Virus record (IMG/VR): IMGVR_UViG_2711768064_000002
DNA from: a virus
Taxonomy: Duplodnaviria; Heunggongvirae; Uroviricota; Caudoviricetes
Length of the DNA stretch: 35,802 nt
Reading direction: 5' to 3' (one strand)
Of this stretch, positions 3,080 through 35,802 are shown piece after piece (within the stretch, counting starts at the first letter, position 1; the number at the start of each line of letters is the position of its first letter). The notes below the pieces were generated by a model, which was given only the letters and a program-made list of their open reading frames with translations, made no database searches and was not told the origin of the DNA. The position numbers and the translations under genes are program-made.

Positions 3080-3109
3080 GTAATTAATCAGAGTTTTTAA
3101 CGCACTTAA

Positions 3110-3893: not shown

Positions 3894-4165
3894 GTATTCG
3901 TATTGAAATTGGCGAACGTTATGTCGTTACCAGTGACAGCTTTCAGTTTATTCTCCACGAGAAAAAGAGAGCGGAAAGCGGTAAAAACGCCGGTCAGGAA
4001 TGGCTGGCGGTGGTTGGTTATTACCCGAAATTAAGCCAGCTCGTTTCCGGCCTGATGCATCACGATATTCTGACCGGAAGCGCAAAGTCTTTTGCTGATT
4101 TAAACGCGCAGGTTGAGCAACTCAGCAAGCGTTGTTCAGAGGCTTTTGGCTCATATGGCCGTTAA
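3890..4165 (+). CDS. Early hypothetical protein (P2 orf83-like), 91 aa
   Basis: ORF directly upstream of and overlapping the A start. Confidence 0.6.
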   Translation: MSIRIEIGERYVVTSDSFQFILHEKKRAESGKNAGQEWLAVVGYYPKLSQLVSGLMHHDILTGSAKSFADLNAQVEQLSKRCSEAFGSYGR

Positions 4166-6431: not shown

Positions 6432-6690
6432 GTAAAAATGCAGCGTGATTTTATATGCCTTTGAATGGGTTATGCGAAGCGCCTCTAAGGCAGATGAGGA
6501 GCAATAGCATGCTGAAGTAGAAGGCTAAATTGTATTGAATCGCTAGCATGTAATTTAAAGCAGCTATTTGATTCGAGTCATAAAAGAGCATCTATTTCGG
6601 CTAATAAAACCATTGCGAGTGACCTTTTGTCGAAGCATAATTCATCTCGAGCGAAGTCTTGCTAGTCTTTCATCGGAATGATGACAGGCG

Positions 6691-6722
6691 CAAAAAAACC
6701 ACCCTGGCAGGTGGTTTTTTTG
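6691..6722. terminator. Bidirectional rho-independent terminator
   Basis: aaaaaaaccaccctggcaggtggttttttt: GC stem flanked by an A-run and a T-run, so it can terminate on either strand. Confidence 0.7.
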
Positions 6723-6733
6723 TTTGAAGCATA

Positions 6734-6847
6734 CTAAAGAATAATACTTACATGGATATTACTGACGTTTACTGACAAACCACTTGGACTACCATATGGA
6801 TAGCCAAAGAGGGCCAGAACGAGAATGCAGTAATAGCACTTCTTCAT
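6734..6847 (-). CDS. 37-aa hydrophobic small protein (MKKCYYCILVLALFGYPYGSPSGLSVNVSNIHVSIIL)
   Basis: Not in the ORF track (under 60 aa). Preceded by SD-like aggagg (rc of 6851..6856) and followed by the 6691..6722 terminator. Function unknown. Confidence 0.4.
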   Translation of the reverse strand: MKKCYYCILVLALFGYPYGSPSGLSVNVSNIHVSIIL

Positions 6848-7419
6848 ATCTCCTCCTGTAAGCAGAGGGCAATTTCCGCCGATATATGCGCTTCTAAGGC
6901 GGAGTTACTATTTAGCGAAGTCTTGCCCTGAAATAATGCTCTGTTTAAACGCAAAGTGATCTGGCATATCACCGAACAGAGAGCCTGAACAACACAACAT
7001 ATAGTATGTCGTTGTTTCTGGTTGCATTTTATGTTGTGTAATCCTGGTTTTGCATCAAGGATGTTTGAGCTTTTTTTGATATAGCTCAAAGTAAAAAGCA
7101 GAGACTACGGATGATAAGGTATTGAAAGCAATGTAAATTTTTTAAAGTTATTGGCGGCTAAAAAATGCACGGTTTCAATATGGTGGACTTAAATAAGCAA
7201 TTAAAAAAGTCATAAATATCACTAAAATCATGGTGTTACGTTTTTTTTGTGGGAGCTGCGGTGACGCTTAAGTTGATTTGTCATTAAATAAGCCGTGCAT
7301 GCAACAAGTGAATGTTTTTGCATGCGTCGGGGATGCCCGTTCCGGCTGCTTGCGGTCAGAGCTGGTGCGGATCCATAGTATCTATGCAACTGCATTAAAA
7401 CCGCCACATGAAGCGGGCG

Positions 7420-7438
7420 GGCGAGGCGGGGAAAGCAC
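7420..7438. other. cos cohesive-end site (GGCGAGGCGGGGAAAGCAC)
   Basis: Exact match to the 19-nt P2/186 cohesive-end sequence as I recall it; sits between A and Q as expected in the prophage. Confidence 0.8.
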
Positions 7439-7592
7439 TGCGCGCAAAATGTTCTTGAAATATTTGTGACATAAGCTAAGACACAAAATGATTGAAGGGC
7501 AGAGCAAATCCTACAGTCCTATGCTATTGTCTCATGTAATGCAGATAAGTTGAAAATTATCTTAAAATATAAGAGTAAAGACATTAAAAGGA

Positions 7593-9860
7593 TTGGTTAT
7601 GAATAATAACTCTAAGTTATTAAGCTCTATCTCGGTTGAATCTGATTTCGAGAACCTTATAAAACTATATGCAAATGAGTTATTTGGTGGTGAAACATAT
7701 CTGATCGGTGGTCCTTGGGATAATGGAAAGGATTTGGTAATAAAAAAGGGGAATAGAGAGTTAAAGCAAGCTGTACAAATATCTATTCAAGAGAAAAATA
7801 TTGAAAGTAAGATTGCTCAAGATATTAAAAAAGTGGCGAAATTGGTTGATGATCATTATTACCCGCCTGTATTATATTTTTTTTGGAGTCATTCAATATC
7901 TGAGCATTTATTGGATAAGATAAGAACAAATGCTCTTAAGGAAGATTTGATTAGATTGGAGTTTTATGATGCCAAACGGATCTCTCAAGATATTACAGAT
8001 AAATACCCAGGGTTATTGAATTACTTAATAAAAGATATACATAAGATAAGTTCTAATACTGAAGATGCAATTAACTTGCAACAAAGAGCATTTTATGAAT
8101 ATTTATTGTTAAGCAAAGATAGTGCTAATTTAAAAAATGAAATAATAAAAGCTAGTATTATGTCTAATTTATATGATGGCGGGAAGTCTGCTGATGATAT
8201 TCTAGAGAATCTAAAAGGTGTTAGTCTTACAAAACGTAGTTTACAGGGTAGACTGCAAAACCTAATTCATCAAAATAAAATTAGATTGAATGATGGTATA
8301 TATAGCCTGTCACCAGAGGAAATTAAAAAGCTTGAGAATATAAATCTCCGTGAAATTGTCAGAAAAGAAGAGTTGTTATCAGTAATAAATAATGAGTTGC
8401 CCAGAAATACAAGTAAGAATCTGGCTGTTCAAGTTGTTGATTTAATAATAAAGGCTTATGAAGAATCAATAAATGTCCAATTAACAGAAAGTAAATTTGA
8501 GCCTCCAAAATTACAGATATTCAAAACTATAGTACATAATTTAAAGGTGTTGATACGGCAGGAATATGATTTGGATGATGAGTCTTCGGATGCTTTAGCA
8601 AAAAAGCTAATGGAGTTGGCTGGTCAAAATGACTATTTATCCGAGCATTGCTCTGCTAAATTATGTGTGAATCTTTTAAGTGATCGGAAATTAGAGAAAT
8701 ATATTGAAAATAAAAATTTTTATATCTACTTTGATGCGCCTGTTCTTATTCCATATTTGATAACTCTTATGTTTGGAGATTTTGAGCTTTTTGATAAGTC
8801 GATTAAAAATATAAATTTACTGAGAGAGTGCATAAATCCCCTCAAAAATAAACATCTGAGAGTTTCTAATGAACATTTTGAAGAAACTGCAAGGCACTAC
8901 TCTGAAGCTGAAAAATTAAGTCAGTTTGTAACTGAAGATTTAATTAGTCAACTTGGTGAGTCGAAAAATGTATACTTTAATGTTTATATGCGGTGGAAAA
9001 ACAAACAGCCTAAACGTACAGATTTTTACGATTTTACTTATGCTTTTCTAGGGTTGGATAAAGATGATATTTATGCGGGGTATAAGCATGACACATTTGC
9101 GCAATGCATTCATAATTTACTAGCGTCAGCAAATATTGTTGTAATTGATAATAAAGACTCGGTGTCACAAGACTTTGTATTTAAAATAAAGCAAAAACTT
9201 AAAAGGGATTTGAATTCTTCACGTCCCGTTCGAGCCATAGAAAATGATGTTATATGTGCTGCAACTTTGAGTGATGAAACCCTACATCTTGATTCCAATG
9301 GTTACTTCAGTACTCCCATGCTAATAACACTTGATAGATCTCAATATCTATTGAGAAGCATAGTAAGAAATGAAAGGAGACATGCTGAATGGTTGGTTTA
9401 TACCCCTCAAAGAGCAATTGAACGTCTTTCCTTGGTGGGTTTAAAAATATCATCGGAATCGTTAAAGGATGGTGTTTTAGCAACCATATCAGAAGAATAT
9501 TTCTTTAAAGAAAGTTCCAGTAGTTTGATTGATACTTTGGCTATTATCATTGGAGATAATCAAGCAAGGCAAGGAGATGTTATTAGGCTTGCATCGCTTT
9601 TAAAAAGAAAGGTCAATGAGGAATCTATTGAGAATTCAGAAATTGATATTGAACACTATAATAACATTAGTTATGTGCTTCTTTTCATTCATCGTGAATT
9701 TAAATCTGAATTTTCAAATATAATAAAAATTTTTGCTGAGGATAGTAGGCGAGATAAACTGGTTGAAGTTTTGTTATCCACTATTCAAGGAGTTTTTGAT
9801 GAGAGTAAAAAGGAAATCTTGCGCTCAAATATAGGACGGTTGTTGGCTGAAATGGGATGA
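7593..9860 (+). CDS. Cargo protein of unknown function, 755 aa, AT-rich; possible N-terminal PD-(D/E)xK/Mrr-like nuclease fold
   Basis: Long uninterrupted ORF with Lys/Asn/Ile-rich composition unlike the GC-rich phage backbone. Motif weakly similar to Mrr-type nuclease cores: DNGKDLVIKKGNRELKQAVQISIQEK. Possible Rx4H at RNERRH. Confidence 0.85.
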   Translation: MVMNNNSKLLSSISVESDFENLIKLYANELFGGETYLIGGPWDNGKDLVIKKGNRELKQAVQISIQEKNIESKIAQDIKKVAKLVDDHYYPPVLYFFWSHSISEHLLDKIRTNALKEDLIRLEFYDAKRISQDITDKYPGLLNYLIKDIHKISSNTEDAINLQQRAFYEYLLLSKDSANLKNEIIKASIMSNLYDGGKSADDILENLKGVSLTKRSLQGRLQNLIHQNKIRLNDGIYSLSPEEIKKLENINLREIVRKEELLSVINNELPRNTSKNLAVQVVDLIIKAYEESINVQLTESKFEPPKLQIFKTIVHNLKVLIRQEYDLDDESSDALAKKLMELAGQNDYLSEHCSAKLCVNLLSDRKLEKYIENKNFYIYFDAPVLIPYLITLMFGDFELFDKSIKNINLLRECINPLKNKHLRVSNEHFEETARHYSEAEKLSQFVTEDLISQLGESKNVYFNVYMRWKNKQPKRTDFYDFTYAFLGLDKDDIYAGYKHDTFAQCIHNLLASANIVVIDNKDSVSQDFVFKIKQKLKRDLNSSRPVRAIENDVICAATLSDETLHLDSNGYFSTPMLITLDRSQYLLRSIVRNERRHAEWLVYTPQRAIERLSLVGLKISSESLKDGVLATISEEYFFKESSSSLIDTLAIIIGDNQARQGDVIRLASLLKRKVNEESIENSEIDIEHYNNISYVLLFIHREFKSEFSNIIKIFAEDSRRDKLVEVLLSTIQGVFDESKKEILRSNIGRLLAEMG

Positions 9861-9875
9861 TTTCTTGGTTATTGA

Positions 9876-9910
9876 ACGGCACTATGGTCGTTGCTTATAG
9901 TGCCGTTTTA
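9876..9910. terminator. Stem-loop terminator between cargo gene and Q 3' end
   Basis: aacggcactat..atagtgccgtt 11-bp stem followed by tttt; lies between convergent genes. Confidence 0.65.
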
Positions 9911-9951
9911 AGGTGTCGTGCCATTATGAATGGCATATCCGAGTTTATATA

Positions 9952-19234: not shown

Positions 19235-20308
19235 TTACTTTCCATTTTTTAATGAATTGATTAACGATGCTATTTGCTCAATGCCATCAAATGTAGATGG
19301 TATCTTATCATCGGATAGCATGATGTTTGAAAATACTACGTCTTCGAATTTTGAAAGCGCTTCCGGATTGTTTTTCCTTATCTCTGAGGAATAGTCGCTA
19401 TAACTCTGAATGAACTGACAAAGGCTCTTTCTGAGTTCTATTTGCATAATCTGAGTTCGTAACGATATATGATTTAGCAGTACAACTCTAAAGTAATACA
19501 TGAAAATCAATGTAACTGATGCAAAAGGTAGTGCTGACATAAAATATGTGGCAGCATTTGTCGTTTCGAGAGTTGGTAATTTATGCATTCCATAGTATAT
19601 CAGCGGGGAGGGAATGATTATAGCCAAGATGATAAGAATTATTCTTGATAGCATGATTTCACTTTCTTTCTTTTTGCCAAGTGAATTAAAGCCTTCAAAC
19701 AATCCAACAAAATTAAATGCGACCTCATACCCTTTTAATGACTCTTTAATTGACTCTATTTTGGCATGTTGCTCCTTTAAGAAGGAGTCGCACTTTTCGA
19801 AAAATTGACGCCCTTCGTTTAAACTATCAATGTATTTTTTATATGTGTCAACATTGCTGGAGCTTAAAACTTCTTTAACCATTGCTAATGGCAGTTCTCT
19901 AAGAGAAAAGTCTATCTGTGCTCTGCTCCGCTCATCGAATTCATTATAGTTATACAGAGCAAAATCCTTGATGGTTCTTAGTGGTGAAAAGTGAGACTCT
20001 ATTTCCGGAGAGAGAATGCTTGGTTCAATGATAAATCTAAAAAAGCAAGTAAATATAAGGTTGATGCTGTTGTTATCTTCTCCCTTCTCTCTTAAGAAAC
20101 TTTTAAAGGTGTCGCCAATCATAGCAATGTTGTACTGGGATTTTTTGTCCCAATCTTCAGGGTTTTCGGAAATGAAGTTTATTGCTTGAGCAATTATTTT
20201 GTTTCTGTTTGATTCAAAGTTTGTGCTGGGAGTCAGCGTGTTCAAAAAGACCAGATAATCTTTGAACAATTCTTTCATTGTTTCTGACGAGAAAAAGTAA
20301 GTACTCAT
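19235..20308 (-). CDS. AT-rich cargo membrane protein with two predicted TM helices, about 357 aa; ORF opens at 20404 (389 aa)
   Basis: Soluble N-terminal region then hydrophobic helices IMLSRIILIILAIIIPSPLIYYGM and FMSALPFASVTLIFMYYFRVVLL. Start at MSTYFF (20308) preferred because the 20404 start overlaps the V start. Confidence 0.8.
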   Translation of the reverse strand: MSTYFFSSETMKELFKDYLVFLNTLTPSTNFESNRNKIIAQAINFISENPEDWDKKSQYNIAMIGDTFKSFLREKGEDNNSINLIFTCFFRFIIEPSILSPEIESHFSPLRTIKDFALYNYNEFDERSRAQIDFSLRELPLAMVKEVLSSSNVDTYKKYIDSLNEGRQFFEKCDSFLKEQHAKIESIKESLKGYEVAFNFVGLFEGFNSLGKKKESEIMLSRIILIILAIIIPSPLIYYGMHKLPTLETTNAATYFMSALPFASVTLIFMYYFRVVLLNHISLRTQIMQIELRKSLCQFIQSYSDYSSEIRKNNPEALSKFEDVVFSNIMLSDDKIPSTFDGIEQIASLINSLKNGK

Positions 20309-20394
20309 AATGGATTTTGTTGTCCCTTGTTGTTCTGTGCACCAGAAATCATGGTGTGATTTACTTCGAGATAGTACAGAATCATTATTATCGA
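20309..20394. promoter_or_regulatory. Late promoter region upstream of V (PV); likely also holds the cargo gene promoter
   Basis: Intergenic between divergent cargo gene and V; TGT-rich element ttgttgtcccttgttgttctgtgcacc. Inferred from P2 organisation. Confidence 0.45.
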
Positions 20395-21024
20395 ATGAAT
20401 GCACAATACAATGAAATTCTTCGCTTTATACGCAATATGATTCGCACTGGCATTATCGTCGAAACCGACCTTAATGCCGGTCGCTGCCGTGTGCAGACCG
20501 GCGGCATGTGCACCGACTGGCTTCAGTGGCTGACCCATCGCGCCGGGCGTTCGCGCACATGGTGGGCACCTTCCGTGGGGGAACAGGTGCTGATTCTGGC
20601 CGTGGGTGGTGAACTCGACACGGCGTTCGTTCTGCCGGGGATTTATTCCGGCGATAACCCCGCGCCGTCTGCGTCGGCGGATGCCCTGCATATCCGTTTC
20701 CCTGACGGGGCGGTGATTGAATATGAACCCGAAACCAGTGCACTCATGGTAAGCGGAATTAAAACGGCCAGCGTGACGGCTTCTGATTCTGTTACTGCCA
20801 CGGTGCCGGTGGTCATGGTGAAAGCATCAACCCGCATCACCCTGGACACACCGGAGGTGGTCTGCACCAACAGGCTGATTACCGGCACGCTGGAAGTGCA
20901 GAAGGGCGGGACGATGCGCGGCAACATTGAACACACCGGCGGTGAACTCTCATCAAACGGTAAGGTACTGCATACCCATAAACACCCCGGCGACAGCGGC
21001 GGCACAACCGGGAGTCCTCTATGA
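20395..21024 (+). CDS. V: Baseplate spike/assembly protein V, about 209 aa; ORF opens at 20317
   Basis: NMIRTGIIVETDLNAGRCRVQTGGMCTDWLQWL recognised as P2 V. Confidence 0.9.
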   Translation: MNAQYNEILRFIRNMIRTGIIVETDLNAGRCRVQTGGMCTDWLQWLTHRAGRSRTWWAPSVGEQVLILAVGGELDTAFVLPGIYSGDNPAPSASADALHIRFPDGAVIEYEPETSALMVSGIKTASVTASDSVTATVPVVMVKASTRITLDTPEVVCTNRLITGTLEVQKGGTMRGNIEHTGGELSSNGKVLHTHKHPGDSGGTTGSPL

Positions 21025-21368
21025 CAGCGCGTTATCTTGGAATGAATCGCAGTGATGGCCTGACTGTCACTGACCTTGAGCATATCAGCCAGAGTATCGG
21101 CGATATCCTGCGCACGCCGGTCGGCTCACGGGTGATGCGTCGTGATTACGGCTCATTGCTGGCGTCAATGATTGACCAGCCGCAGACCCCGGCGCTTGAG
21201 TTGCAGATTAAGGTCGCCTGTTACATGGCGGTGCTGAAATGGGAACCCCGCGTCACCCTGTCATCCGTCACCACTGAGCGCAGTTTTGACGGGCGAATGA
21301 CGGTCACGTTAACCGGCCAGCACAACGACACCGGCCAGCCACTTTCGTTAACCATCCCTGTGAGTTGA
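21021..21368 (+). CDS. W: Baseplate protein W, 115 aa
   Basis: Size and position as P2 W (GPW/gp25 family). Confidence 0.9.
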   Translation: MTARYLGMNRSDGLTVTDLEHISQSIGDILRTPVGSRVMRRDYGSLLASMIDQPQTPALELQIKVACYMAVLKWEPRVTLSSVTTERSFDGRMTVTLTGQHNDTGQPLSLTIPVS

Positions 21369-21372
21369 AACC

Positions 21373-22281
21373 ATGCCGATTATCGACCTGAACCAGCTAC
21401 CCGTACCGGATGTGGTCGAGGAGCTGGACTTTGAAACCATTCTTGCCGAACGCAAGGCGACACTGATTTCCCTTTACCCGGAAGACCAGCAGGAGGCGGT
21501 TGCCCGTACCCTGACGCTGGAATCCGAGCCTCTCGTCAAACTGCTGGAGGAAAATGCTTATCGTGAGCTTATCTGGCGTCAGCGTGTGAATGAGGCCGCA
21601 CGGGCGGTAATGCTGGCCTGTGCCGCCGGTAATGACCTTGATGTGATTGGTGCCAATTACAACACCACGCGCCTGATTATCACCCCGGCGGATGATTCGA
21701 CCATCCCGCCGACACCGGCAGTGATGGAATCTGACACCGATTATCGTCTGCGTATTCAGCAGGCGTTTGAAGGTTTAAGCGTCGCCGGGTCGGTGGGTGC
21801 CTATCAGTATCATGGCCGCAGTGCTGACGGGCGTGTCGCGGATATCTCTGTCACCAGTCCGTCTCCGGCCTGCGTCACCATCTCCGTGCTGTCACGTGAA
21901 AATAACGGTGTCGCATCCGAAGACCTGCTGGCTGTGGTGCGTAACGCCCTTAATGGCGAGGACGTCAGGCCGGTGGCCGACCGCGTGACCGTGCAGTCTG
22001 CCGCCATCGTTGAATACCAGATAAACGCCACGCTTTACCTTTATCCTGGTCCCGAAAGCGAACCCATCCGCGCTGCCGCCGTGAAAAAACTGGAAGCGTA
22101 TATCACGGCACAGCACCGGCTGGGGCGCGACATCCGACTGTCTGCCATTTATGCCGCTTTGCATGTGGAAGGCGTGCAGCGTGTCGAGCTGGCCGCACCA
22201 CTGGCCGACATTGTGCTCAACAGTACGCAGGCGTCTTTCTGCACCGAATACAGCGTCGTGACCGGAGGCTCGGATGAGTGA
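21373..22281 (+). CDS. J: Baseplate protein J, 302 aa
   Basis: Size and position as P2 J. Confidence 0.9.
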   Translation: MPIIDLNQLPVPDVVEELDFETILAERKATLISLYPEDQQEAVARTLTLESEPLVKLLEENAYRELIWRQRVNEAARAVMLACAAGNDLDVIGANYNTTRLIITPADDSTIPPTPAVMESDTDYRLRIQQAFEGLSVAGSVGAYQYHGRSADGRVADISVTSPSPACVTISVLSRENNGVASEDLLAVVRNALNGEDVRPVADRVTVQSAAIVEYQINATLYLYPGPESEPIRAAAVKKLEAYITAQHRLGRDIRLSAIYAALHVEGVQRVELAAPLADIVLNSTQASFCTEYSVVTGGSDE

Positions 22282-22804
22282 TTCGCGCCTGCTGCCGACC
22301 GGCTCATCAGCGCTTGAAATTGCTGCCGCGAAAGCCTGTGCGGAAATTGAAAAAACGCCGGTCAGTATTCGTGAACTGTGGAACCCGGACACCTGCCCGG
22401 CAAATCTGCTGCCGTGGCTGGCGTGGGCGTTTTCAGTCGACAGGTGGGATGAAAAGTGGCCGGAAGTGACAAAACGCGCCGTTATCCGCGATGCCTATTT
22501 CATCCACTGTCATAAAGGCACTATCGGCGCAATTCGGCGTGTGGTGGAGCCGCTCGGCTATCTCATCAACGTGACGGAGTGGTGGGAAAACAGTGACCCG
22601 CCAGGCACCTTCCGGCTTGATATTGGTGTACTGGAAAGTGGCATCACAGAGGCAATGTATCAGGAAATGGAACGGCTTATTGCTGATGCCAAACCTGCAA
22701 GCCGTCATCTTATTGGCCTGAACATTACCCGGGACATTCCCGGCTACCTGTTCGCCGGTGGTGTGGCTTACGACGGCGATGTAATTACGGTTTACCCCGG
22801 ATAA
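22274..22804 (+). CDS. I: Baseplate/tail protein I, 176 aa
   Basis: Size and position as P2 I. Confidence 0.9.
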   Translation: MSDSRLLPTGSSALEIAAAKACAEIEKTPVSIRELWNPDTCPANLLPWLAWAFSVDRWDEKWPEVTKRAVIRDAYFIHCHKGTIGAIRRVVEPLGYLINVTEWWENSDPPGTFRLDIGVLESGITEAMYQEMERLIADAKPASRHLIGLNITRDIPGYLFAGGVAYDGDVITVYPG

Positions 22805-22814
22805 GTGAGGAATA

Positions 22815-24860
22815 ATGAGCACAAAATTCAAAACCGTTATCACCACTGCCGGTGCAGCAAAGCTGGCAGCGGCAACCGCACCGGGAGGGCGGAAGGTCAA
22901 CATTACCACGATGGCCGTCGGGGATGGCGGTGGTAAATTGCCTGTCCCGGATGCCGGACAGACCGGGCTTATCCACGAAGTCTGGCGACATGCGCTGAAC
23001 AAAATCAGCCAGGACAAACGAAACAGTAATTATATTATCGCAGAGCTGGTTATTCCGCCGGAGGTGGGCGGCTTCTGGATGCGTGAGCTTGGCCTGTACG
23101 ATGATGCGGGAACGTTAATTGCCGTGGCGAACATGGCCGAAAGTTATAAGCCAGCTCTTGCCGAAGGCTCAGGGCGTTCGCAGACCTGTCGCATGGTCAT
23201 CATCGTCAGCAGTGTGGCCTCAGTGGAGCTGACCATTGACACCACAACGGTGATGGCGACGCAGGATTACGTTGATGACAAAATTGCAGAGCATGAACAG
23301 TCACGACGTCACCCGGACGCCTCGCTGACCGCAAAAGGTTTTACTCAGTTAAGCAATGCGACCAACAGCACGTCTGAAACACTGGCCGCAACGCCGAAAG
23401 CGGTTAAGGCCGCATATGACCTTGCTAACGAGAAATATACCGCACAGGACGCTACCACAGCGCGAAAAGGTCTTGTCCAGCTAAGTAGTGCGACCAACAG
23501 CATGTCTGAAACGCTCGCCGCAACACCAAAAGCCGTTAAGACGGTAATGGATGAAACGAACAAGAAAGCGCCATTAAACAGCCCTGCACTGACCGGAACG
23601 CCAACGACGCCAACTGCGCGACAGGGAACGAATAATACTCAGATCGCAAACACGGCTTTCGTTATGGCCGCGATTGCCGCCCTTGTAGACTCGTCGCCTG
23701 ACGCACTGAATACGCTGAACGAGCTGGCGGCGGCGCTGGGCAATGACCCGAATTTTGCTACCACCATGACTAATGCGCTTGCGGGTAAGCAACCGAAAGA
23801 TGCCACTTTGACGGCGCTGGCGGGGCTTGCTACTGCGGCAGACAGGTTTCCGTATTTTACGGGGAATGATGTTGCCAGCCTGGCGACCCTGACAAAAGTC
23901 GGGCGGGATATTCTGGCTAAATCGACCGTTGCCGCCGTTATCGAATATCTCGGTTTACAGGAAACGGTAAACAGGGCCGGGAACGCCGTGCAAAAAAATG
24001 GCGATACCTTGTCCGGCGGGCTTACTTTTGAAAACGACTCAATCCTTGCCTGGATTCGAAATACTGACTGGGCAAAGATTGGATTTAAAAATGATGCCGA
24101 CAGCGATACTGATTCATATATGTGGTTTGAAACAGGTGACAACGGCAATGAATATTTCAAATGGAGAAGTCGCCAGAGCACCACAACAAAAGACCTGATG
24201 AATCTTAAATGGGATGCTCTGTATGTTCTTGTTAAAGCCCTTTTCAGTAGTGAAGTAAAAATATCTACAGTCAATGCGCTGAGGATATTTAATTCATCTT
24301 TTGGTGCTATTTTTCGCCGTTCTGAAGAAAACCTGTATATCATTCCTACACGAGAAAATGAGGGTGAAAATGGAGATATTGGGCCATTAAGGCCATTCGG
24401 CATCAACTTAAGAACAGGAGTTGTGTCTGTTGGTAATGGTGCCAGGATTGATGGCGGGCTGGCACTTGGCACGAATAACGCGTTGGGTGGGAACTCTATT
24501 GTTCTTGGTGATAACGACACCGGATTTAAACAAAATGGCGATGGTAATCTGGATGTTTATGCTAATAACGTCCATGTTATGCGCTTTGTTTCCGGAAGCA
24601 TTCAAAGTAATAAGACCATAAATATTACGGGGCGTGTTAATCCCTCGGATTACGGTAACTTTGATTCCCGCTATGTGAGAGATATCAGACTTGGCACACG
24701 TGTTGTCCAGACCATGCAGAAAGGGGTGATGTATGAGAAAGCAGGGCACGTAATTACCGGGCTTGGTATTGTCGGTGAAGTCGATGGTGATGACCCCGCA
24801 GTATTCAGGCCAATACAAAAATACATCAATGGCACATGGTATAACGTCGCACAGGTGTAA
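22815..24860 (+). CDS. H: Tail fiber protein H, 681 aa
   Basis: Conserved N-terminus, internal repeats, AT-richer C-terminal region; position between I and G. Confidence 0.9.
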   Translation: MSTKFKTVITTAGAAKLAAATAPGGRKVNITTMAVGDGGGKLPVPDAGQTGLIHEVWRHALNKISQDKRNSNYIIAELVIPPEVGGFWMRELGLYDDAGTLIAVANMAESYKPALAEGSGRSQTCRMVIIVSSVASVELTIDTTTVMATQDYVDDKIAEHEQSRRHPDASLTAKGFTQLSNATNSTSETLAATPKAVKAAYDLANEKYTAQDATTARKGLVQLSSATNSMSETLAATPKAVKTVMDETNKKAPLNSPALTGTPTTPTARQGTNNTQIANTAFVMAAIAALVDSSPDALNTLNELAAALGNDPNFATTMTNALAGKQPKDATLTALAGLATAADRFPYFTGNDVASLATLTKVGRDILAKSTVAAVIEYLGLQETVNRAGNAVQKNGDTLSGGLTFENDSILAWIRNTDWAKIGFKNDADSDTDSYMWFETGDNGNEYFKWRSRQSTTTKDLMNLKWDALYVLVKALFSSEVKISTVNALRIFNSSFGAIFRRSEENLYIIPTRENEGENGDIGPLRPFGINLRTGVVSVGNGARIDGGLALGTNNALGGNSIVLGDNDTGFKQNGDGNLDVYANNVHVMRFVSGSIQSNKTINITGRVNPSDYGNFDSRYVRDIRLGTRVVQTMQKGVMYEKAGHVITGLGIVGEVDGDDPAVFRPIQKYINGTWYNVAQV

Positions 24861-24863
24861 TTT

Positions 24864-25391
24864 ATGCAGCATTTAAAAAATATTACTGCGGGTAATCCAA
24901 AAACTGTTGCCCAATATCAACTGACAAAAAATTTTGATGTTATCTGGTTATGGTCCGAAGAGGGAAAAAACTGGTATGAGGAAGTAAGTAATTTTCAGGA
25001 AGACACGATAAAGATTGTTTACGACGAGAATAATATAATTTTCGGCATCACCAGAGATGCTTCAACGCTTAACCCTGAAGGTTTCAGCGTTGTCGAGGTT
25101 CCTGATATTACCTCCAACCGACGTGCTGATGACTCAGGTAAATGGATGTTTAAGGATGGTGCCGTGATTAAGCGGATTTATACGGCAGATGAACAGGAGC
25201 AACAGGCAGAATCACAAAAGGCAGCTTTACTTTCCGAAGCTGAATCCGTGATTTTGCCGCTGGAACGCGCTGTCAGGCTGAATATGGCGACGGATGAGGA
25301 ACGCAGCCGACTGGAAGCATGGGAACGCTACAGCGTTCTGGTCAGTCGTGTGGATCCTGCAAATCCCGAATGGCCGGAAATGCCGCAATAA
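24864..25391 (+). CDS. G: Tail fiber assembly chaperone G, 175 aa
   Basis: Follows H; size as P2 G. Confidence 0.88.
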
Positions 25392-25668
25392 GTTGTATGA
25401 TCTCTGGTGTGAGCTTACATATCTATAGCACAGAGTAAAGCCTAATCTGACAGTCCGCTATGTGCCAATAGCAGACATCCACACAATTATGTAAAATAGG
25501 CTAGTGAGTCAGCATTCATGTAGTTCAGATCATCTATAGCTGAAATCACGATCGCTTAACAGTGATTCACTCATAACTGCTAGCGAGCAATGTTCTTGTT
25601 TGAACCTCAAGTTGAAACCACAAAATCGAAAGGTTAAATAATCGATTATCCAAATAGAAGGCAATTCA

Positions 25669-27108
25669 ATGGGAAATCACGATTTTATTAAATATATTAT
25701 ATTATTTGGCTTGTCTGGGATAATGTTGGCTATGCTAGTGCTCTTTATTTCCTCTGTAGCATATTATTTTTTCACCCATAATAAAGGAGTTCTTCAGTAT
25801 ATAATTAAAACTATTTCCATAGGCCTTGTAACTATTCCAGTCGCAATAATACTAATCGTTGCACTCGTCCATTATGTTGTCTGGCAAAAAGGGATTTCAA
25901 CGGCATGGCGTTTTATATTCCACTCGACTAAAACAACAACCGTGAATGATATTGCTAATGCTGAATCAGAAGATGTTATTGTTCACCTTGTTCATGGAAC
26001 ATTCGAGACGAATGCATCTTGGACACAACCTGAGTCAAAAATGTGCAAATCAATTAACTCAAGGAATCCCAATATTGGTATATCTCGATTTAAATGGGAT
26101 GGCAAAAACTCTGCATCCTCTCGTAAACAAGCGGCATATCAATTAGGAATGCATATTGATAACTCTCCTGCAAAATACAATTATATTATTGCACATAGCC
26201 ATGGGGCAGCTATTGTAAGAGAAATGTCTTATTTACGAAGTGATATTGCAAAAAAAATTCAAGGCGTATGTCTTTTGTCACCACCGTTCATCTTTCGACG
26301 TAGGATAAAAAGAACGTCAGGTGCTTTAATTAATCTTATTGATATTAGCGGAACTTTGGCCATTCAATTGTTACTTGCAGTATTTTTTGTACCTTTGAAT
26401 CTATATAATATTAATTATGCAGCAGTAATTTTTTTTGTTTCAATATTTGCAGAAATTATAATCTCCAAAAAATATAAAAAAGAATTTTTGCAGGAAGTTG
26501 AGAGTGGCGAGCACTGTGAAGCGGTTGATTTTAGGAATGTTGAAATTTATCACGCAATTGGTGATGAAGCCGATTCAGGCCTAAGATTTGTAAGTTCACT
26601 TCACGAAGGATGTTTTGCAATTCTTTCCCAGCTAAAAAAAGCTCAAGTAAGTCATAAAAAGCTAACACATTGGTCAGCAGTTTTAAGCTACCTATTTTAT
26701 ATTTCCATGAGTGTATTAATATGGTTCTTCTATCCTGAAGAAAAATCATGGATTATAGTATTATTAGTAAGCTTTGTATTAACTTCTATTTCTCACATTT
26801 GGCAAAGGTTGAAACCATCAAAGGATGTTCCTCATGTTTTACTTATTGCAGCAATACCAGTTGCGATTTTTTCATTTTGGTTGGCTGTAGCTAAGGCCAT
26901 AGCTTATGGAGATTTGCGATTAATATTTTGCCCGGAAGTTTTTATTGCATCATCTGAAACTCCAGCTGGAGATCATAAAGTTATTAAATTTGCTCCACAG
27001 AATGATGGTATATTAATACACTCAACACACTCGCATCCGGAGGCTATAATTAATGTTTCTGAATGGTTATATTGCTCTGAGAATAAAAGGGTAAATGGTG
27101 AATCATAG
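25669..27108 (+). CDS. AT-rich cargo polytopic membrane protein with serine-hydrolase-like motifs, 479 aa
   Basis: N-terminal TM helices, then VIVHLVHGTFE (HG oxyanion-like) and IIAHSHGAAIV (GxSxG-like elbow), further TM segments, C-terminal ILIHSTHSH. Occupies the Z/fun position between G and FI. Confidence 0.85.
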   Translation: MGNHDFIKYIILFGLSGIMLAMLVLFISSVAYYFFTHNKGVLQYIIKTISIGLVTIPVAIILIVALVHYVVWQKGISTAWRFIFHSTKTTTVNDIANAESEDVIVHLVHGTFETNASWTQPESKMCKSINSRNPNIGISRFKWDGKNSASSRKQAAYQLGMHIDNSPAKYNYIIAHSHGAAIVREMSYLRSDIAKKIQGVCLLSPPFIFRRRIKRTSGALINLIDISGTLAIQLLLAVFFVPLNLYNINYAAVIFFVSIFAEIIISKKYKKEFLQEVESGEHCEAVDFRNVEIYHAIGDEADSGLRFVSSLHEGCFAILSQLKKAQVSHKKLTHWSAVLSYLFYISMSVLIWFFYPEEKSWIIVLLVSFVLTSISHIWQRLKPSKDVPHVLLIAAIPVAIFSFWLAVAKAIAYGDLRLIFCPEVFIASSETPAGDHKVIKFAPQNDGILIHSTHSHPEAIINVSEWLYCSENKRVNGES

Positions 27109-27441
27109 ATTAATATAACCACCATAAATTAATTTGTAATATACTTCCCTGCTAAATTCGCAGGGGAGTATAAAAATATACTAGCTCAGTGGAGTCTTGT
27201 GCTGAGTTAGTACATGTTAACAAGATATTTATTCACCACTAAATAATTAGCTAGAACAATAAGAATAATTTTGGGCAGTAAAGACAGGATGTAAACTACA
27301 CTTATTCCAGTATGTTGGTTATCGTAGTTATATATGATGAGCTCTAAAGTCCGCTTCTCGCTCAAAGCAGACTGTCAGATTTGATAGCGTTTTGGCTATG
27401 TAAATTGTCAGTCGGGAAATAAGTGAGTACAAATCATGACA

Positions 27442-27470
27442 GGCGGGCGGATTGTCCGCCTTTTCTTTAT
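27442..27470 (+). terminator. Rho-independent terminator downstream of cargo gene
   Basis: ggcgga-ttg-tccgcc hairpin followed by ttttcttt. Confidence 0.6.
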
Positions 27471-27565
27471 CTGTTGTTTCATCCACTGACCAGCCAGGTC
27501 AAATAGCGTCTCATGCTCTGCACAACAGAAAATACCACTCACCCATTAACCACGGAGTTAAACGG
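27471..27565 (+). promoter_or_regulatory. Late promoter region upstream of FI (PF)
   Basis: tgttg ... caaca inverted element (27471..27525) upstream of FI RBS ggag; inferred from P2 late promoter architecture. Confidence 0.45.
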
Positions 27566-28756
27566 ATGAGTGACTATCATCACGGCGTGCAGGTGCTGGA
27601 GATTAACGACGGCACCCGCGTCATTTCCACCGTATCCACTGCCATTGTCGGCATGGTCTGCACGGCCAGCGATGCGGATGCGGAAACCTTCCCCCTCAAT
27701 AAACCGGTGCTGATTACCAATGTGCAGAGTGCAATTGCAAAGGCCGGTAAAAAAGGCACGCTGGCGGCATCGTTGCAGGCCATCGCCGACCAGTCAAAAC
27801 CGGTCACCGTTGTTGTGCGTGTGGAAGACGGCACCGGCGACGACGAGGAAACGAAACTCGCGCAGACCGTTTCCAATATCATCGGCACCACCGACGAAAA
27901 CGGTCAGTACACCGGACTGAAAGCCCTGCTGGCGGCGGAGTCGGTAACTGGTGTTAAACCGCGTATTCTCGGCGTGCCGGGACTGGACACCAAAGAGGTG
28001 GCTGTTGCACTGGCATCAGTCTGTCAGAAGCTGCGCGCTTTCGGGTATATCAGCGCATGGGGCTGTAAAACCATTTCCGAGGTGAAAGCCTACCGCCAGA
28101 ATTTCAGCCAGCGTGAACTGATGGTTATCTGGCCGGATTTCCTCGCATGGGATACGGTCACCAGTACCACCGCCACCGCGTATGCCACCGCCCGTGCGCT
28201 GGGTCTGCGTGCCAGAATCGACCAGGAGCAGGGCTGGCATAAAACGCTGTCCAACGTCGGGGTAAACGGTGTTACCGGCATCAGTGCCTCTGTATTCTGG
28301 GATTTGCAGGAGTCCGGCACCGATGCTGACCTGTTGAATGAGTCAGGTGTCACAACGCTGATTCGCCGCGACGGTTTCCGCTTCTGGGGTAACCGTACCT
28401 GCTCTGATGACCCGCTGTTCCTCTTTGAAAACTACACCCGCACCGCGCAGGTGCTGGCCGATACGATGGCTGAGGCGCACATGTGGGCGGTGGACAAGCC
28501 CATCACCGCAACGCTGATTCGCGACATCGTTGACGGCATCAATGCCAAATTCCGTGAGCTGAAAACAAACGGCTATATCGTGGATGGCTCATGCTGGTTC
28601 AGCGAAGAATCCAACGATGCGGAAACCCTCAAGGCCGGAAAACTGTATATCGACTACGACTATACACCGGTGCCTCCTCTCGAAAACCTGACCCTGCGCC
28701 AGCGTATTACCGATAAATACCTGGCAAATCTGGTCACCTCGGTTAACAGCAATTAA
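27566..28756 (+). CDS. FI: Tail sheath protein FI, 396 aa; ORF opens at 27452
   Basis: Start MSDYHHGVQVLEIN with RBS; 396 aa as P2 FI. Confidence 0.92.
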   Translation: MSDYHHGVQVLEINDGTRVISTVSTAIVGMVCTASDADAETFPLNKPVLITNVQSAIAKAGKKGTLAASLQAIADQSKPVTVVVRVEDGTGDDEETKLAQTVSNIIGTTDENGQYTGLKALLAAESVTGVKPRILGVPGLDTKEVAVALASVCQKLRAFGYISAWGCKTISEVKAYRQNFSQRELMVIWPDFLAWDTVTSTTATAYATARALGLRARIDQEQGWHKTLSNVGVNGVTGISASVFWDLQESGTDADLLNESGVTTLIRRDGFRFWGNRTCSDDPLFLFENYTRTAQVLADTMAEAHMWAVDKPITATLIRDIVDGINAKFRELKTNGYIVDGSCWFSEESNDAETLKAGKLYIDYDYTPVPPLENLTLRQRITDKYLANLVTSVNSN

Positions 28757-28768
28757 GGAGCCTGACCG

Positions 28769-29287
28769 ATGGCAATGCCGCGCAAACTCAAGTTAATGAA
28801 CGTCTTTCTGAACGGCTACAGCTATCAGGGCGTTGCAAAGTCCGTCACGCTGCCAAAACTGACCCGTAAGCTCGAAAACTATCGCGGTGCGGGGATGAAC
28901 GGCAGCGCACCGGTAGACCTCGGTCTTGATGACGATGCGCTGTCAATGGAGTGGTCGCTCGGGGGCTTCCCGGATTCGGTTATCTGGGAGCTTTACGCCG
29001 CAACCGGTGTGGATGCCGTACCGATTCGTTTTGCTGGCTCTTACCAGCGCGACGATACCGGCGAAACGGTGGCCGTCGAGGTGGTCATGCGTGGCCGTCA
29101 GAAAGAAATCGACACCGGCGAGGGTAAACAGGGAGAAGACACCGAGTCGAAAATCTCCGTGGTCTGCACCTATTTCCGGCTGACGATGGACGGTAAGGAG
29201 CTGGTCGAAATCGACACCATTAACATGATTGAGAAGGTGAACGGCGTCGACCGGCTGGAGCAACACCGCCGCAATATCGGCCTGTGA
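28769..29287 (+). CDS. FII: Tail tube protein FII, 172 aa
   Basis: Size and position as P2 FII. Confidence 0.92.
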   Translation: MAMPRKLKLMNVFLNGYSYQGVAKSVTLPKLTRKLENYRGAGMNGSAPVDLGLDDDALSMEWSLGGFPDSVIWELYAATGVDAVPIRFAGSYQRDDTGETVAVEVVMRGRQKEIDTGEGKQGEDTESKISVVCTYFRLTMDGKELVEIDTINMIEKVNGVDRLEQHRRNIGL

Positions 29288-34268: not shown

Positions 34269-34296
34269 TAAAAAATAAGCCCGTGTAAGGGAGATT
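34269..34296. repeat. attR core (taaaaaataAgcccgtgtaagggagatt)
   Basis: Direct repeat of attL; coincides with the 3' end of the sRNA gene. Confidence 0.85.
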
Positions 34297-34356
34297 ACAC
34301 AGGCTAAGGAGGTGGTTCCTGGTACAGCTAGCATTTTATGGGTTATGTTTTTCAGC
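34270..34356 (-). ncRNA. cyaR: CyaR (RyeE) small regulatory RNA, 87 nt
   Basis: Minus strand reads gctgaaaaacataacccataaaatgctagctgtaccaggaaccacctccttagcctgtgtaatctcccttacacgggcttatttttt, matching CyaR as I recall it, including the terminator hairpin and U-tail. Confidence 0.8.
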
Positions 34357-34440
34357 GAAACGGATGATAACCTTAATAAATGCAGCTGTATGTGATCGGT
34401 TTCTAAGAATTTTCCATCCGGGAAAAATAATCGAAATTAA

Positions 34441-35802
34441 TCACTTACCGTGGGGATTACGCGTGGTTTCCCCGGAGAAATTACGCATCAGCAGCGCGTA
34501 ATTGAGCTCAAGATCCTGCGGGACCGGGAGCCACACAGTATAACCATCGCCTGGTGCTATCGGCATAGCTTCGCCTTTGGCGTTTTCCATGTGCTCAAGG
34601 GTAAAATTAATGTTGCCTTGCGGCGTCATCAGCTCAAGGCTGTCGCCAACGGAGAATTTATTTTTCACCGCTACCGCCGCGAGGTCCCCCTTGCGCTCAC
34701 CGGTAAACTCACCAACAAACTGCTGGCGGTCAGAAACTGAATAACCGTATTCGTAGTTCTGATAATCGTCGTGAGTATGACGACGCAGGAAACCTTCGGT
34801 ATAGCCACGATGCGCCAGACCTTCCAGAGTTTCCAGCAGGCTGGTATCGAACGGTTTTCCCGCAGCGGCGTCATCGATAGCTTTGCGGTAAACCTGTGCG
34901 GTGCGTGCACAATAGTAGAAAGATTTGGTACGACCTTCGATTTTCAGCGAATGCACGCCCATTTTGGTCAGGCGTTCTACATGGGCGATGGCGCGCAGAT
35001 CTTTCGAGTTCATGATGTAAGTGCCGTGCTCATCTTCAAACGCGGTCATATACTCGCCCGGACGCTGGGCCTCTTCGATCATAAACACTTTGTCGGTTGG
35101 TGCGCCGATACCCAGCGTCGGCTCAACATTTTGCACCGGAATCGGCTCGTACTTGTGTACGATGTTGCCAACATCATCTTCTTTCCCTTCCTGGACGTTG
35201 TACTCCCAGCGGCAGGCGTTGGTGCAGGTGCCCTGGTTCGGGTCGCGCTTGTTGATATAGCCAGAGAGCAGGCAGCGACCGGAGTAGGCCATGCACAGCG
35301 CGCCGTGAACGAAGATCTCGATCTCCATATCCGGCACCTGATTGCGGATCTCTTCAATCTCTTCCAGCGACAGCTCGCGAGAGAGGATCACGCGGGTCAG
35401 GCCCATTTGCTGCCAGAATTTCACCGTCGCCCAGTTCACGGCGTTAGCCTGCACCGAAAGGTGGATCGGCATTTCAGGGAAGTGCTCACGCACCAGCATA
35501 ATCAGCCCTGGATCGGACATAATCAGCGCATCCGGCCCCATTTCCACCACCGGTTTCAGGTCACGGATAAAGGTTTTCAGCTTGGCGTTGTGCGGTGCAA
35601 TGTTGACCACGACATAAAACTTTTTCCCCAGCGCGTGGGCTTCATTGATGCCGAGCTGAAGATTTTCGTGGTTGAATTCGTTGTTGCGCACACGCAGGGA
35701 ATAACGCGGCTGGCCCGCATAAACAGCATCTGCGCCATAAGCGAAAGCGTAACGCATATTTTTCAGCGTTCCCGCCGGGGAAAGGAGTTCCGGTTTAAAC
35801 AT
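34441..35802 (-). CDS. yegQ: Peptidase U32-family protein (YegQ/TrhP-like), 453 aa
   Basis: Full-length ORF starting at the window edge (MFKPELLSPAGTLKNMRYAFAYGADAVYAGQPRYSLR); GC-normal host-like composition; recalled as neighbour of cyaR in E. coli. Confidence 0.75.
   Translation of the reverse strand: MFKPELLSPAGTLKNMRYAFAYGADAVYAGQPRYSLRVRNNEFNHENLQLGINEAHALGKKFYVVVNIAPHNAKLKTFIRDLKPVVEMGPDALIMSDPGLIMLVREHFPEMPIHLSVQANAVNWATVKFWQQMGLTRVILSRELSLEEIEEIRNQVPDMEIEIFVHGALCMAYSGRCLLSGYINKRDPNQGTCTNACRWEYNVQEGKEDDVGNIVHKYEPIPVQNVEPTLGIGAPTDKVFMIEEAQRPGEYMTAFEDEHGTYIMNSKDLRAIAHVERLTKMGVHSLKIEGRTKSFYYCARTAQVYRKAIDDAAAGKPFDTSLLETLEGLAHRGYTEGFLRRHTHDDYQNYEYGYSVSDRQQFVGEFTGERKGDLAAVAVKNKFSVGDSLELMTPQGNINFTLEHMENAKGEAMPIAPGDGYTVWLPVPQDLELNYALLMRNFSGETTRNPHGK

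Follow-up and report, generated by a model that had tools for sequence, protein, structure and literature searches.

Tail fibre cassettes of P2-, Mu- and P1-type phages

Several phage groups are known in which the receptor-binding end of the tail fibre and the gene for its chaperone behave as a cassette. A study of the P2 H and G genes from 1992, which described a mosaic with a lower-GC distal H and G, is reportedly the founding example of tail-fibre gene exchange. In Mu the corresponding genes S and U lie in the invertible G segment, and in the P1-type phages (P1, P7, D6) they lie in the invertible C segment. In the Xuanwuvirus phage 520873 (NC_049344) a silent cassette lies beside an invertase, and the enzyme flips between this cassette and one alternative. 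The host-range role of the fibre tip was mapped in the P2-like phages P88 and pro147: moving the 31-aa region HR2 of pro147 into P88 gave P88 the host range of pro147, and an HR1 swap left the plating pattern unchanged (Chen et al., 2017, PMC5285337). Phage pro147 plates on DE048, DH5a, BL21 and MC1061 (PMC5285337).

Here we describe the H/G locus in a stretch of viral DNA of 35,802 nucleotides (IMG/VR record IMGVR_UViG_2711768064_000002; the whole stretch is referred to below as the window). Very probably, H is built from exchangeable modules in series, and its distal module together with G belongs to a pool common to P2-, Mu- and P1-type phages. This conclusion is based on direct observations of four kinds: the anatomy of the locus, a step in base composition, the breakpoints of homology, and identity to an allele characterized by experiment. 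The AT-rich outer half of the locus is a well-known cassette swapped among these phages, which makes the finding an ordinary one, although it is correct. Mosaic H/G genes were already known from P2 (1992) and pro147 (2017), and there is no new biology in it.

In the proposed scheme, H would form a trimeric tail fibre folded by the chaperone G and would consist of three modules: (i) an N-terminal domain of the P2 family, which would plug into the baseplate; (ii) two conserved Phage_fiber_2 repeats, 44 residues each, and a shaft; and (iii) past a relic crossover site, a lower-GC distal receptor-binding module that would travel with G. The distal module and G are carried in an invertible segment in Mu, in P1/D6 and in some Peduoviridae (520873, YpM_39), and are fixed in one orientation here, as in P2. 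Unlike P2 in the segment 24240–24653, the prophage carries the tip allele of pro147 and P2_AC1.

Genes and domains of the H/G locus

The region corresponds to the predicted tail-fibre gene H and chaperone gene G of a P2-like E. coli prophage (Table 1). The late-operon order V-W-J-I-H-G at 20317–25391 is gene for gene that of P2, Wphi and P2_AC1, with H placed directly after I and ahead of the chaperone gene, like P2-type gpH; G starts 4 nt past the H stop codon. At the DNA level H/G is 98.7% identical to P2_AC1 and 96.2% identical to pro147.

The N-terminal part of H covers the full profile of PF12571 (Phage tail-collar fibre protein, N-terminal; formerly DUF3751) with E = 2.2e-58 at aa 1–151. 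In 30-aa windows this domain is 87–100% identical to P2 H (97–100% from aa 31), and the same range holds for the whole of aa 1–470, with 97–100% kept up to aa ~450. Further downstream, aa 375–680 match the solved structure of the Mu tail fibre S (5yvq, E = 6.8e-93), and a Pfam Gp34_trimer match was found at aa 419–529. For G, phrog_136 matched at full length, phrog_24494 at aa 1–93 and phrog_3792 at aa 101–175. The NCBIfam search returned no match for H or G.

Table 1. Positions in the window of the genes, domains and segments of the H/G locus
Feature	Position	Strand	Details
Gene H, predicted tail fibre protein	22815..24860	+	681 aa ORF; Pfam PF12571, PF03406 x2, PF21446
Putative N-terminal baseplate-attachment domain of H (aa 1-151)	22815..23267	+	PF12571
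Phage_fiber_2 unit 1 (aa 170-213)	23322..23453	+	PF03406 best stretch aa 170-210; direct repeat family D1
Phage_fiber_2 unit 2 (aa 214-257)	23454..23585	+	24/44 aa and 85/132 nt identical to unit 1
Proximal part of shared distal module (aa ~378-476)	23931..24256	+	DNA 91.7% identical to Mu S, 89.4% to D6 S
Single vestigial gix/cix-like invertase crossover site in H	23938..23963	+	codes for IEYLGLQE
AT-rich tract, distal H and about the first 120 codons of G	24024..25234	+	GC 0.417, two-change-point fit
Segment not collinear with P2/Wphi H (aa ~476-613)	24240..24653	+	P2 DNA identity 30-40% per 100-nt window
HR1 equivalent (aa 529-612)	24399..24650	+	mapped by alignment with P88 H
HR2 equivalent (aa 633-663, TMQKGVMYEKAGHVITGLGIVGEVDGDDPAV)	24711..24803	+	mapped by alignment with P88 H
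Gene G, predicted tail fibre assembly protein / chaperone	24864..25391	+	175 aa; PF02413 Caudo_TAP, E 6.7e-35

It should be mentioned that three antisense ORFs (23639–24520, 24408–24872 and 22433–23017, all on the minus strand) were rejected as genes: Pfam gave no match for any of them, and the gene that they overlap has strong support.

Base composition

A sequence-only reading of the window had described distal H and G as AT-richer than the N-terminal part of H. For H this was confirmed, with GC 0.548 over aa 1–395 and 0.434 over aa 396–681; 329 windows of the same size from core genes of the prophage have a mean of 0.567 (sd 0.018), and distal H lies 7.4 sd lower. For G, with an overall GC of 0.451, the description holds for about the first 120 codons only (aa 1–80, GC 0.375) and fails for aa 81–175 (GC 0.516). 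Maximum-likelihood change points fell at 24024 and 25234 and delimit stretches with GC 0.549, 0.417 and 0.563.

Such AT-richness could be a by-product of the amino-acid composition of a beta-rich fibre tip and no sign of foreign origin. From proximal to distal H, GC1 drops from 0.57 to 0.50 and GC2 from 0.496 to 0.402, and the composition is common to all homologues; since GC2 falls too, amino-acid composition does account for part of the AT-richness. As the whole explanation we consider it very unlikely. The drop is steepest at synonymous third positions, where GC3 goes from 0.577 (aa 1–395) to 0.395 (aa 396–681), the neighbouring core genes having GC3 of 0.58–0.68. Moreover, the GC boundary is no more than ~60–85 nt away from the start of the homology to Mu and the P1-type phages, and the conserved 3' end of G is back at GC 0.56.

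The same step is present in P2 H/G (0.556 to 0.434, with G at 0.44), and the same distal module has GC of 0.43–0.46 in Mu and D6 and 0.43–0.44 in P2. As both the GC step and the repeats described below also occur in P2, they are family features, not peculiar to this prophage. It follows that the module was acquired before the split between P2 and this phage, and that the step alone is no proof of a recent event.

Comparison with P2

P2 gpH/gpG (NC_001895) occupy the same operon position and have both repeats, the GC step and the gix-like site in common with our locus. The AT-rich part of the locus, distal H and G, might have come down vertically from the P2 ancestor by ordinary divergence, with no exchange in the lineage. 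This is consistent with the step seen in P2, with the near identity of H aa 1–470 and with the 89–94% identity of G to P2 G.

The DNA alignment argues against it. Identity to P2 H is 96.2% over 22815–24239, falls abruptly to an unalignable level at 24240 and is back at 86% from 24654 through G. Within the intervening segment only 24447–24565 aligns (81%), out of register. For these comparisons with H of P2 and Wphi we relied on MAFFT and blastn, as blastp reported a C-terminal HSP only. Indels of 68 and ~50 codons separate the two genes: block A (H aa 477–545) is missing from P2 H, and P2 H is longer by about 50 residues past aa 606, ahead of the C-terminal domain. The non-collinear segment is also present in P2_AC1, in pro147 and in the silent cassette of 520873, and among 5426 complete E. 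coli genomes, 47 have it at full length. Uniform composition and full-length collinearity with P2, which the sequence-only reading had named as evidence against a horizontally exchanged module, were both looked for, and neither was seen.

The distal module in other phages

That distal H and G form such a module is further supported by the DNA shared with Mu and D6 and by matches across genera. Within positions 20000–29000 of the window, distal H and G are the sole DNA similar to the otherwise unrelated Mu and D6 (83–92%), and the baseplate genes in the same interval gave no DNA match to either phage. At the protein level H aa 378–476 are identical at 93 of 99 positions to Mu S and to P2 H, and at 91 of 99 to D6 S.

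In Mu the homology (91.7%) begins exactly at the boundary of the G segment, that is, at gix. The order of domains in the distal part of Mu S, block A included, is the same as here, but blocks A–C and HR2 are merely 17–36% identical. In Mu there is another N-terminal part, a pair of gix sites, an alternative S'/U' cassette and the Gin invertase; our locus lacks all of these. In D6 the DNA identity is 89% over 23956–24256 and 82% over 24636–25391, while weaker upstream homology ends at cixR, which is aligned with the gix-like site of our locus. At 939 aa, D6 S is longer, and past cixR it has ~600 nt more; it resembles Mu in its middle blocks and P2 in its C-terminal block.

The silent cassette of 520873 matches 23934–25391 in one piece (93.6%), including the stretch that P2 lacks, and the constant part of the expressed gene of this phage matches 23358–23958 (91%). 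What is a flipped alternative in 520873 is permanently joined to the constant part of H here. The Yersinia phage vB_YpM_50 matches from 24486 on with 96% identity. Block-wise identities are discordant: HR2 is identical at 31 of 31 residues to YpM_50, at 21 of 31 to P2 and D6 and at 10 of 31 to Mu, whereas block A is identical at 25 of 69 residues to Mu and D6 and absent from P2. Sharp breakpoints combined with near-identical sequence in other genera, which purely vertical descent from the P2 ancestor does not allow, are what we observed, and such descent appears extremely improbable.

In comparisons with 12 phages the breakpoints cluster at 23420, 23540–42, 23931–75, 24239–56, 24486, 24636–54 and 24802–25, where HSP ends at conserved motifs may partly reflect motif conservation and not true crossover points. 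Homology to YpM_50, L-413C and P24E6b stops at 23420, inside repeat unit 1; that to fiAA91-ss (96.4%) and PSP3 breaks off at 23540–23542, inside unit 2; and that to Mu, D6, YpM_39 and 520873 begins or ends at 23931–23975, around the gix-like site. PSP3 G shares DNA with 25230–25384 only. Exchange probably proceeded by recombination in conserved stretches, namely the repeats, the region of the crossover site, the segment 24000–24250 and G.

The gix-like site

The site TTATCGAATATCTCGGTTTACAGGAA has three mismatches to Mu gix and is the single match in the 35.8 kb at up to three mismatches, where chance alone would give 0. P2 and P2_AC1 have the site in identical form, and one position distinguishes it from the Sc/Sv site of YpM_39, which bears an invertase. 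Its location at the junction equivalent to Sc/Sv, together with the invertible cassettes of the close relatives 520873, YpM_39 and P88 (an invertase is annotated in 520873 and YpM_39), might indicate that the locus is a still active, invertible switch of host range, comparable to the G segment of Mu or the C segment of P1. We attach practically no weight to this explanation. No inverted repeats flanking H/G were found by the repeat search, and tblastn with Mu Gin over the whole window revealed no serine invertase of the gin/cin/pin/hin type (best E = 2.2). Downstream of G there is no alternative Sv'/U' cassette on the opposite strand; a 479-aa cargo ORF is found there instead, and the matches to U' of Mu and D6 map onto G itself. 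With one crossover site and no invertase, H/G is not an active invertible switch.

There is a slight chance that the site is not dead, that Din-family invertases acting in trans recognize it and that fixed P2-type fibres acquire new receptor-binding cassettes in this way, through site-specific and not homologous recombination. Co-resident prophages might provide such enzymes (e14 Pin, Mu Gin, invertases of Xuanwuvirus). A fusion of P2 residues 1–370 with residues 446–987 of P1 S' is functional with U' (PMC9942202), which means that a joint at the gix-like site is workable. Safe joints for chimeric fibres would be the repeats, the relic of the crossover site near aa 370–380 and the H/G junction, and they could be useful for the retargeting of phages or tailocins.

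Phage_fiber_2 repeats

Two segments of about 73 bp encoding near-identical peptides had been noticed at 23336–23408 and 23468–23540. The repeat is real: 60 of 73 nt are identical, whereas in 30 codon shuffles of H the best self-match over 73 nt had a mean of 37.8 and was never above 40. The peptides were read correctly (aa 178–199 and 222–243, encoded at 23346–23411 and 23478–23543), but the positions given for them were slightly shifted, with starts that lie 10 nt upstream, 1 nt ahead of a codon boundary and hence out of frame, and with ends 3 nt short.

The repeat search yielded one two-copy direct family, D1 (23333–23435 and 23465–23567; 103 nt, 75% identity, spacing 132 nt). Both copies belong to PF03406 (Phage tail fibre repeat), which matched H with two units (E = 1.7e-40; 136.8 bits against a cutoff of 22); the Pfam unit has ~42 residues, and the match was judged against the gathering score and in a tail fibre protein. 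The 44-aa units abut, so the repeats are tandem at the protein level. Tandem Repeats Finder detected nothing in 22500–25600 down to a minimum score of 30, since there are only two copies and they have diverged too far; they are therefore better described as protein-level Pfam repeats. Both units are found at the same place in H of P2, Wphi and P2_AC1, and the motif also occurs in Mu S and D6 S. A recent slippage-type duplication acting as a length-variable (contingency) tract, as two adjacent in-frame copies at a spacing of 132 nt might suggest, deserves hardly any credence for copies that are merely 64–82% identical in DNA, escape Tandem Repeats Finder, have this distribution among phages and represent a curated Pfam repeat. 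The repeats sit in the proximal, GC-normal half of H, outside the AT-rich cassette, and matter as module junctions.

Host range and the pro147 allele

The H proteins of pro147 (NC_028896) and P2_AC1 (NC_070903) each differ from our H at five residues. All differences from pro147 are located at or before aa 389, so the receptor-binding half (aa 390–681) is identical. By this identity, H is probably the receptor-binding fibre of the virion. The HR2 sequence is the same as in pro147 and YpM_50. The tip allele is thus one whose host range was already mapped in pro147 in 2017 (PMC5285337), and the suggestion that the module defines host range is supported by the pro147-identical tip and the published HR2 swap. 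Host range would be set by the last ~200 residues of H, chiefly aa 633–663, and ~700 bp (H aa ~476–681) would decide what the prophage can infect. The receptor is presumably the LPS core.

The chaperone G and its surroundings

The G protein is 84–99% identical to P2 G, Wphi G, Mu U, D6 U and YpM_50 G (84–90% to Mu U), and it is not a divergent part. As summarized in PMC9608196 and PMC7882524, North (2019) found that in the Mu chaperone the N-terminal domain binds the fibre tip and that its conserved C-terminal domain drives trimerization. By analogy with the Mu S–U complex, the N-terminal domain of G would bind the C-terminal end of the fibre.

Strict co-variation of this domain with the H tip was considered and is not supported: pro147 has the same tip and a P2-like G. 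Between our G and that of pro147 there are 17 residue differences, and between ours and that of P2_AC1 there are three. As pro147 has the same HR2 in spite of these 17 differences, the notion that the H tip and G are one unit is only approximately true.

The cargo ORF downstream of G lies on the plus strand and is followed by FI. None of the three neighbouring cargo ORFs had a match in PADLOC, Pfam or NCBIfam. Downstream of G, this prophage, pro147 and P2_AC1 each have a different cargo gene.

Repeats and base composition of the tail fibre gene

An earlier sequence-only reading had proposed that gene H (tail fibre) contains internal repeats and that its distal part, together with gene G (tail fibre chaperone), is an AT-rich, horizontally exchanged module defining host range. 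The analysis confirmed the observation and supports the interpretation, with refinements concerning the origin of the repeats and the GC step, the extent of divergence and the nature of the module boundary.

The repeat search revealed a single family with two copies of 103 nt, at 23333-23435 and 23465-23567, which are 75% identical and spaced 132 nt apart. The two 73-nt segments noticed earlier are identical at 60 of 73 nucleotides, against a mean best self-match of 37.8 and a maximum of 40 in codon-shuffled H (n = 30), and are thus real; the peptides quoted for them were correct (aa 178-199 and 222-243), but the coordinates began 10 nt upstream, out of frame. The repeats are two PF03406 'Phage tail fibre repeat' units (Pfam, E = 1.7e-40) of 44 residues, directly adjacent (aa 170-213 and 214-257) and identical at 24 of 44 amino acids and 85 of 132 nucleotides; Tandem Repeats Finder called no repeat for them. 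Both units lie at the equivalent position in P2, Wphi and P2_AC1, and Mu S and D6 S also contain the motif. The repeats thus characterise the family and are not a recent duplication.

GC content falls from 0.548 in H aa 1-395 to 0.434 in aa 396-681, which is 7.4 sd lower than in the prophage core genes (329 windows of equal size), and at third positions it drops from 0.577 to 0.395 (0.58-0.68 in neighbouring core genes), which bears out the AT-richer distal H. A two-change-point fit placed the AT-rich tract at 24024-25234 (successive GC 0.549, 0.417 and 0.563). For G, the claim holds for about the first 120 codons (aa 1-80, GC 0.375) and fails for the rest (aa 81-175, GC 0.516). P2 H/G has an equivalent step (0.556 to 0.434; P2 G, 0.44), and the homologous modules are alike in composition (Mu Sv 0.45 and U 0.44; D6 0.46 and 0.43). 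Both the repeats and the GC step are features inherited within the P2 H/G family.

Origin and boundary of the distal H/G module

The ORF order of the window is that of a near-complete P2-like (Peduovirus) prophage: int-like, A, a cargo island, Q, P, O-N-M-L, lysis genes, R and S, followed by a second cargo island, V-W-J-I-H-G, a third cargo island and FI-FII-E-T-U-D. P2, Wphi and P2_AC1 agree with it gene for gene around H/G, with H/G DNA identity of 98.7% for P2_AC1; the value for pro147 is 96.2%. Host DNA just past the right end, with a Peptidase_U32 gene next to the CyaR sRNA, locates the prophage beside cyaR, where E. coli K-12 holds its cryptic P2 remnant.

When window 20000-29000 was compared with the Mu and D6 tail regions by blastn, matches were confined to distal H and G (Table), and the baseplate genes gave none. 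In addition, H aa 375-680 matched Mu tail fibre S, of which the structure is solved (5yvq), with E = 6.8e-93. The Mu homology starts exactly at the annotated G-segment boundary of Mu, at the sequence TTATCGAATATCTCGGTTTACAGGAA (23938-23963), with three mismatches to Mu gix. This gix-like site occurs once in the window (chance expectation 0), is identical in P2 and P2_AC1, and differs by one mismatch from the site at the Sc/Sv junction of Yersinia phage vB_YpM_39, a carrier of a hin-type invertase. H/G is not an active switch: the window contains no Gin-like invertase (best tblastn E = 2.2), and neither a second crossover site nor an alternative cassette was found in it. It follows that the site is left over from an invertible tail-fibre locus that, as in P2, has become frozen in a single orientation; this relic invertase crossover site is the module boundary. 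A P2(1-370)-P1 S'(446-987) chimera is functional when U' is supplied (PMC9942202), so the crossover-site region is a usable module joint.

The most telling relative is Xuanwuvirus 520873, whose silent cassette, beside a DNA invertase, matches 23934-25391 in one 93.6% piece, and 23358-23958 corresponds (91%) to the constant part of the fibre gene that this phage expresses. Window H-G thus resembles one fixed orientation of such an invertible locus, and the allele fixed in it is the silent cassette of 520873. In 520873 and P88, both Peduoviridae, and in the unclassified YpM_39, the opposite strand carries alternative tail-fibre cassettes in the style of Mu and P1; 520873 and YpM_39 have an annotated DNA invertase next to them.

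Coordinates of features in the window and, where stated, in related phages
Feature	Position (nt)	Strand	Details
A-Q island	6500-9950		GC 0.30-0.35; P2 tin/old position
755-aa ORF	7593-9860	+	in A-Q island
S-V island	19235-20404	-	GC ~0.35; P2 orf30 position
Gene H	22815-24860		681 aa
Gene G	24864-25391		175 aa
Match to Mu S	23931-24256		91.7% DNA identity
Match to D6 S	23956-24256		89.4% DNA identity
Match to D6 S end + U	24636-25391		82% DNA identity
Match to Mu S end + U	24825-25391		83% DNA identity
HR1 equivalent	24399-24650		aa 529-612; alignment with P88 H
HR2 equivalent	24711-24803		aa 633-663; alignment with P88 H
Breakpoint, end of repeat 1	23420		YpM_50, L-413C, P24E6b
Breakpoint, end of repeat 2	23540-23542		fiAA91-ss (96% identity, then nothing), PSP3, 520873
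Breakpoint, gix-like site	23931-23975		Mu, D6, YpM_39, 520873
Breakpoint, end of shared proximal segment	24239-24256		P2, Wphi, Mu, D6
Breakpoint, inside block B	24486		YpM_50, L-413C, P24E6b, YpM_39
Breakpoint, start of C-terminal domain	24636-24654		D6, P2, Wphi
Breakpoint, H/G junction	24802-24825		fiAA91-ss, Mu
G-FI island	25392-27451		GC 0.31-0.39; P2 Z/fun position
479-aa ORF	25669-27108	+	sole ORF of G-FI island; hydrophobic stretches
CyaR/RyeE sRNA	34273-34358	-	Rfam, 100.7 bits; just outside prophage right end
Peptidase_U32 gene	34441-35802	-	adjoins CyaR/RyeE
Alternative-cassette locus, 520873	3336-7993		NC_049344 (L012)
Alternative-cassette locus, YpM_39	1931-6970		L011
Alternative-cassette locus, P88	2273-6406		L013

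Mosaic structure of H and G

Breakpoints of homology with 12 fetched phages were grouped at a few positions (Table), and query start and end points in a wider megablast table fell into the same clusters. DNA identity to P2 is 96.2% across 22815-24239 and 85.5% from 24654 through the end of G, while ~24240-24653 is not alignable (30-40% in 100-nt windows) except for one 119-nt match out of register. In the protein, H aa 1-470 are near-identical to P2 (87-100% in 30-aa windows; 97-100% from aa 31 to ~450). Window H, Mu and D6 have block A (aa 477-545; 25/69 identical), which is missing in P2; block B (aa 546-594) shares 42 of 49 residues with YpM_50 and 35 with P2, whose H has ~50 further residues after it that window H is without. 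High P2 identity resumes in the C-terminal domain. Residues 633-663, the equivalent of HR2 (one of two segments, HR1 and HR2, swapped by Chen et al., 2017), are identical in YpM_50 at all 31 positions, in P2 and D6 at 21 and in Mu at 10. Such discordant block-wise similarities are the hallmark of repeated cassette shuffling. The proposal of an exchanged module is upheld by the restriction of Mu/D6 matches to distal H and G and by the segment unalignable to P2; the true divergence from P2, however, is 24240-24653 plus HR2, not G. Of 5426 complete E. coli genomes, 47 had the P2-divergent segment in full length, with 99.5-99.8% identity in the 15 best of the 47 matches.

In D6 S, the middle blocks are Mu-identical and the C-terminal block (HR2 and the C-terminal end) is P2-identical, and this fibre is a clear three-way mosaic of P1-, Mu- and P2-type fibres.

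G is not a divergent part: its protein is 84-99% identical to P2 G, Wphi G, Mu U, D6 U and YpM_50 G. In PHROGs, aa 1-93 belong to one family and aa 101-175 to another, an N-terminal/C-terminal split consistent with the two domains described for the Mu chaperone: according to the accounts of North et al. (2019) in PMC9608196 and PMC7882524, the N-terminal domain binds the C-terminal part of the fibre and the conserved C-terminal domain mediates oligomerisation. The G of pro147 (L014, 4547-5077) differs from that of the window (24864-25391) at 17 residues and appears P2-like, although the H tips are identical. The same tip with another G implies one more recombination joint where H meets G; it also shows that the G alleles in this group can replace one another under one tip.

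Host range

Only five residues distinguish window H from pro147 H, and none of them lies beyond aa 389, so the entire distal half is identical. Phage pro147 plates on DE048, DH5a, BL21 and MC1061, and P88 acquires the pro147 range when its own HR2 (aa 716-746) is exchanged for that of pro147, but not after the HR1 swap (Chen et al., 2017, PMC5285337). The host-range role suggested for the module is thereby supported, and the tip allele of the window is already host-range mapped. Judging by P2, Mu and P1, the likely target of window H is the LPS core. All of these H/G findings are established biology, already known; the conclusion reportedly stands in the title of a P2 H/G paper of 1992.

Cargo islands

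The A-Q island has the lowest GC content in the prophage, and its 755-aa ORF had no match in Pfam, PADLOC, NCBIfam or PHROGs. In the S-V island, a 389-aa ORF without matches in Pfam, PADLOC and NCBIfam corresponds to phrog_9373 (unknown function; E = 9e-134). The third island separates G from FI. Its 479-aa ORF gave no match in PADLOC, NCBIfam and PHROGs and a sub-threshold Ser_hydrolase match (E = 1.4e-3). This cargo is full-length in just 2 of 5426 complete E. coli genomes, and other E. coli genomes carry different cargo at the site, e.g., Shedu. The ORF is a candidate for a defence or lysogenic-conversion gene of no known type.
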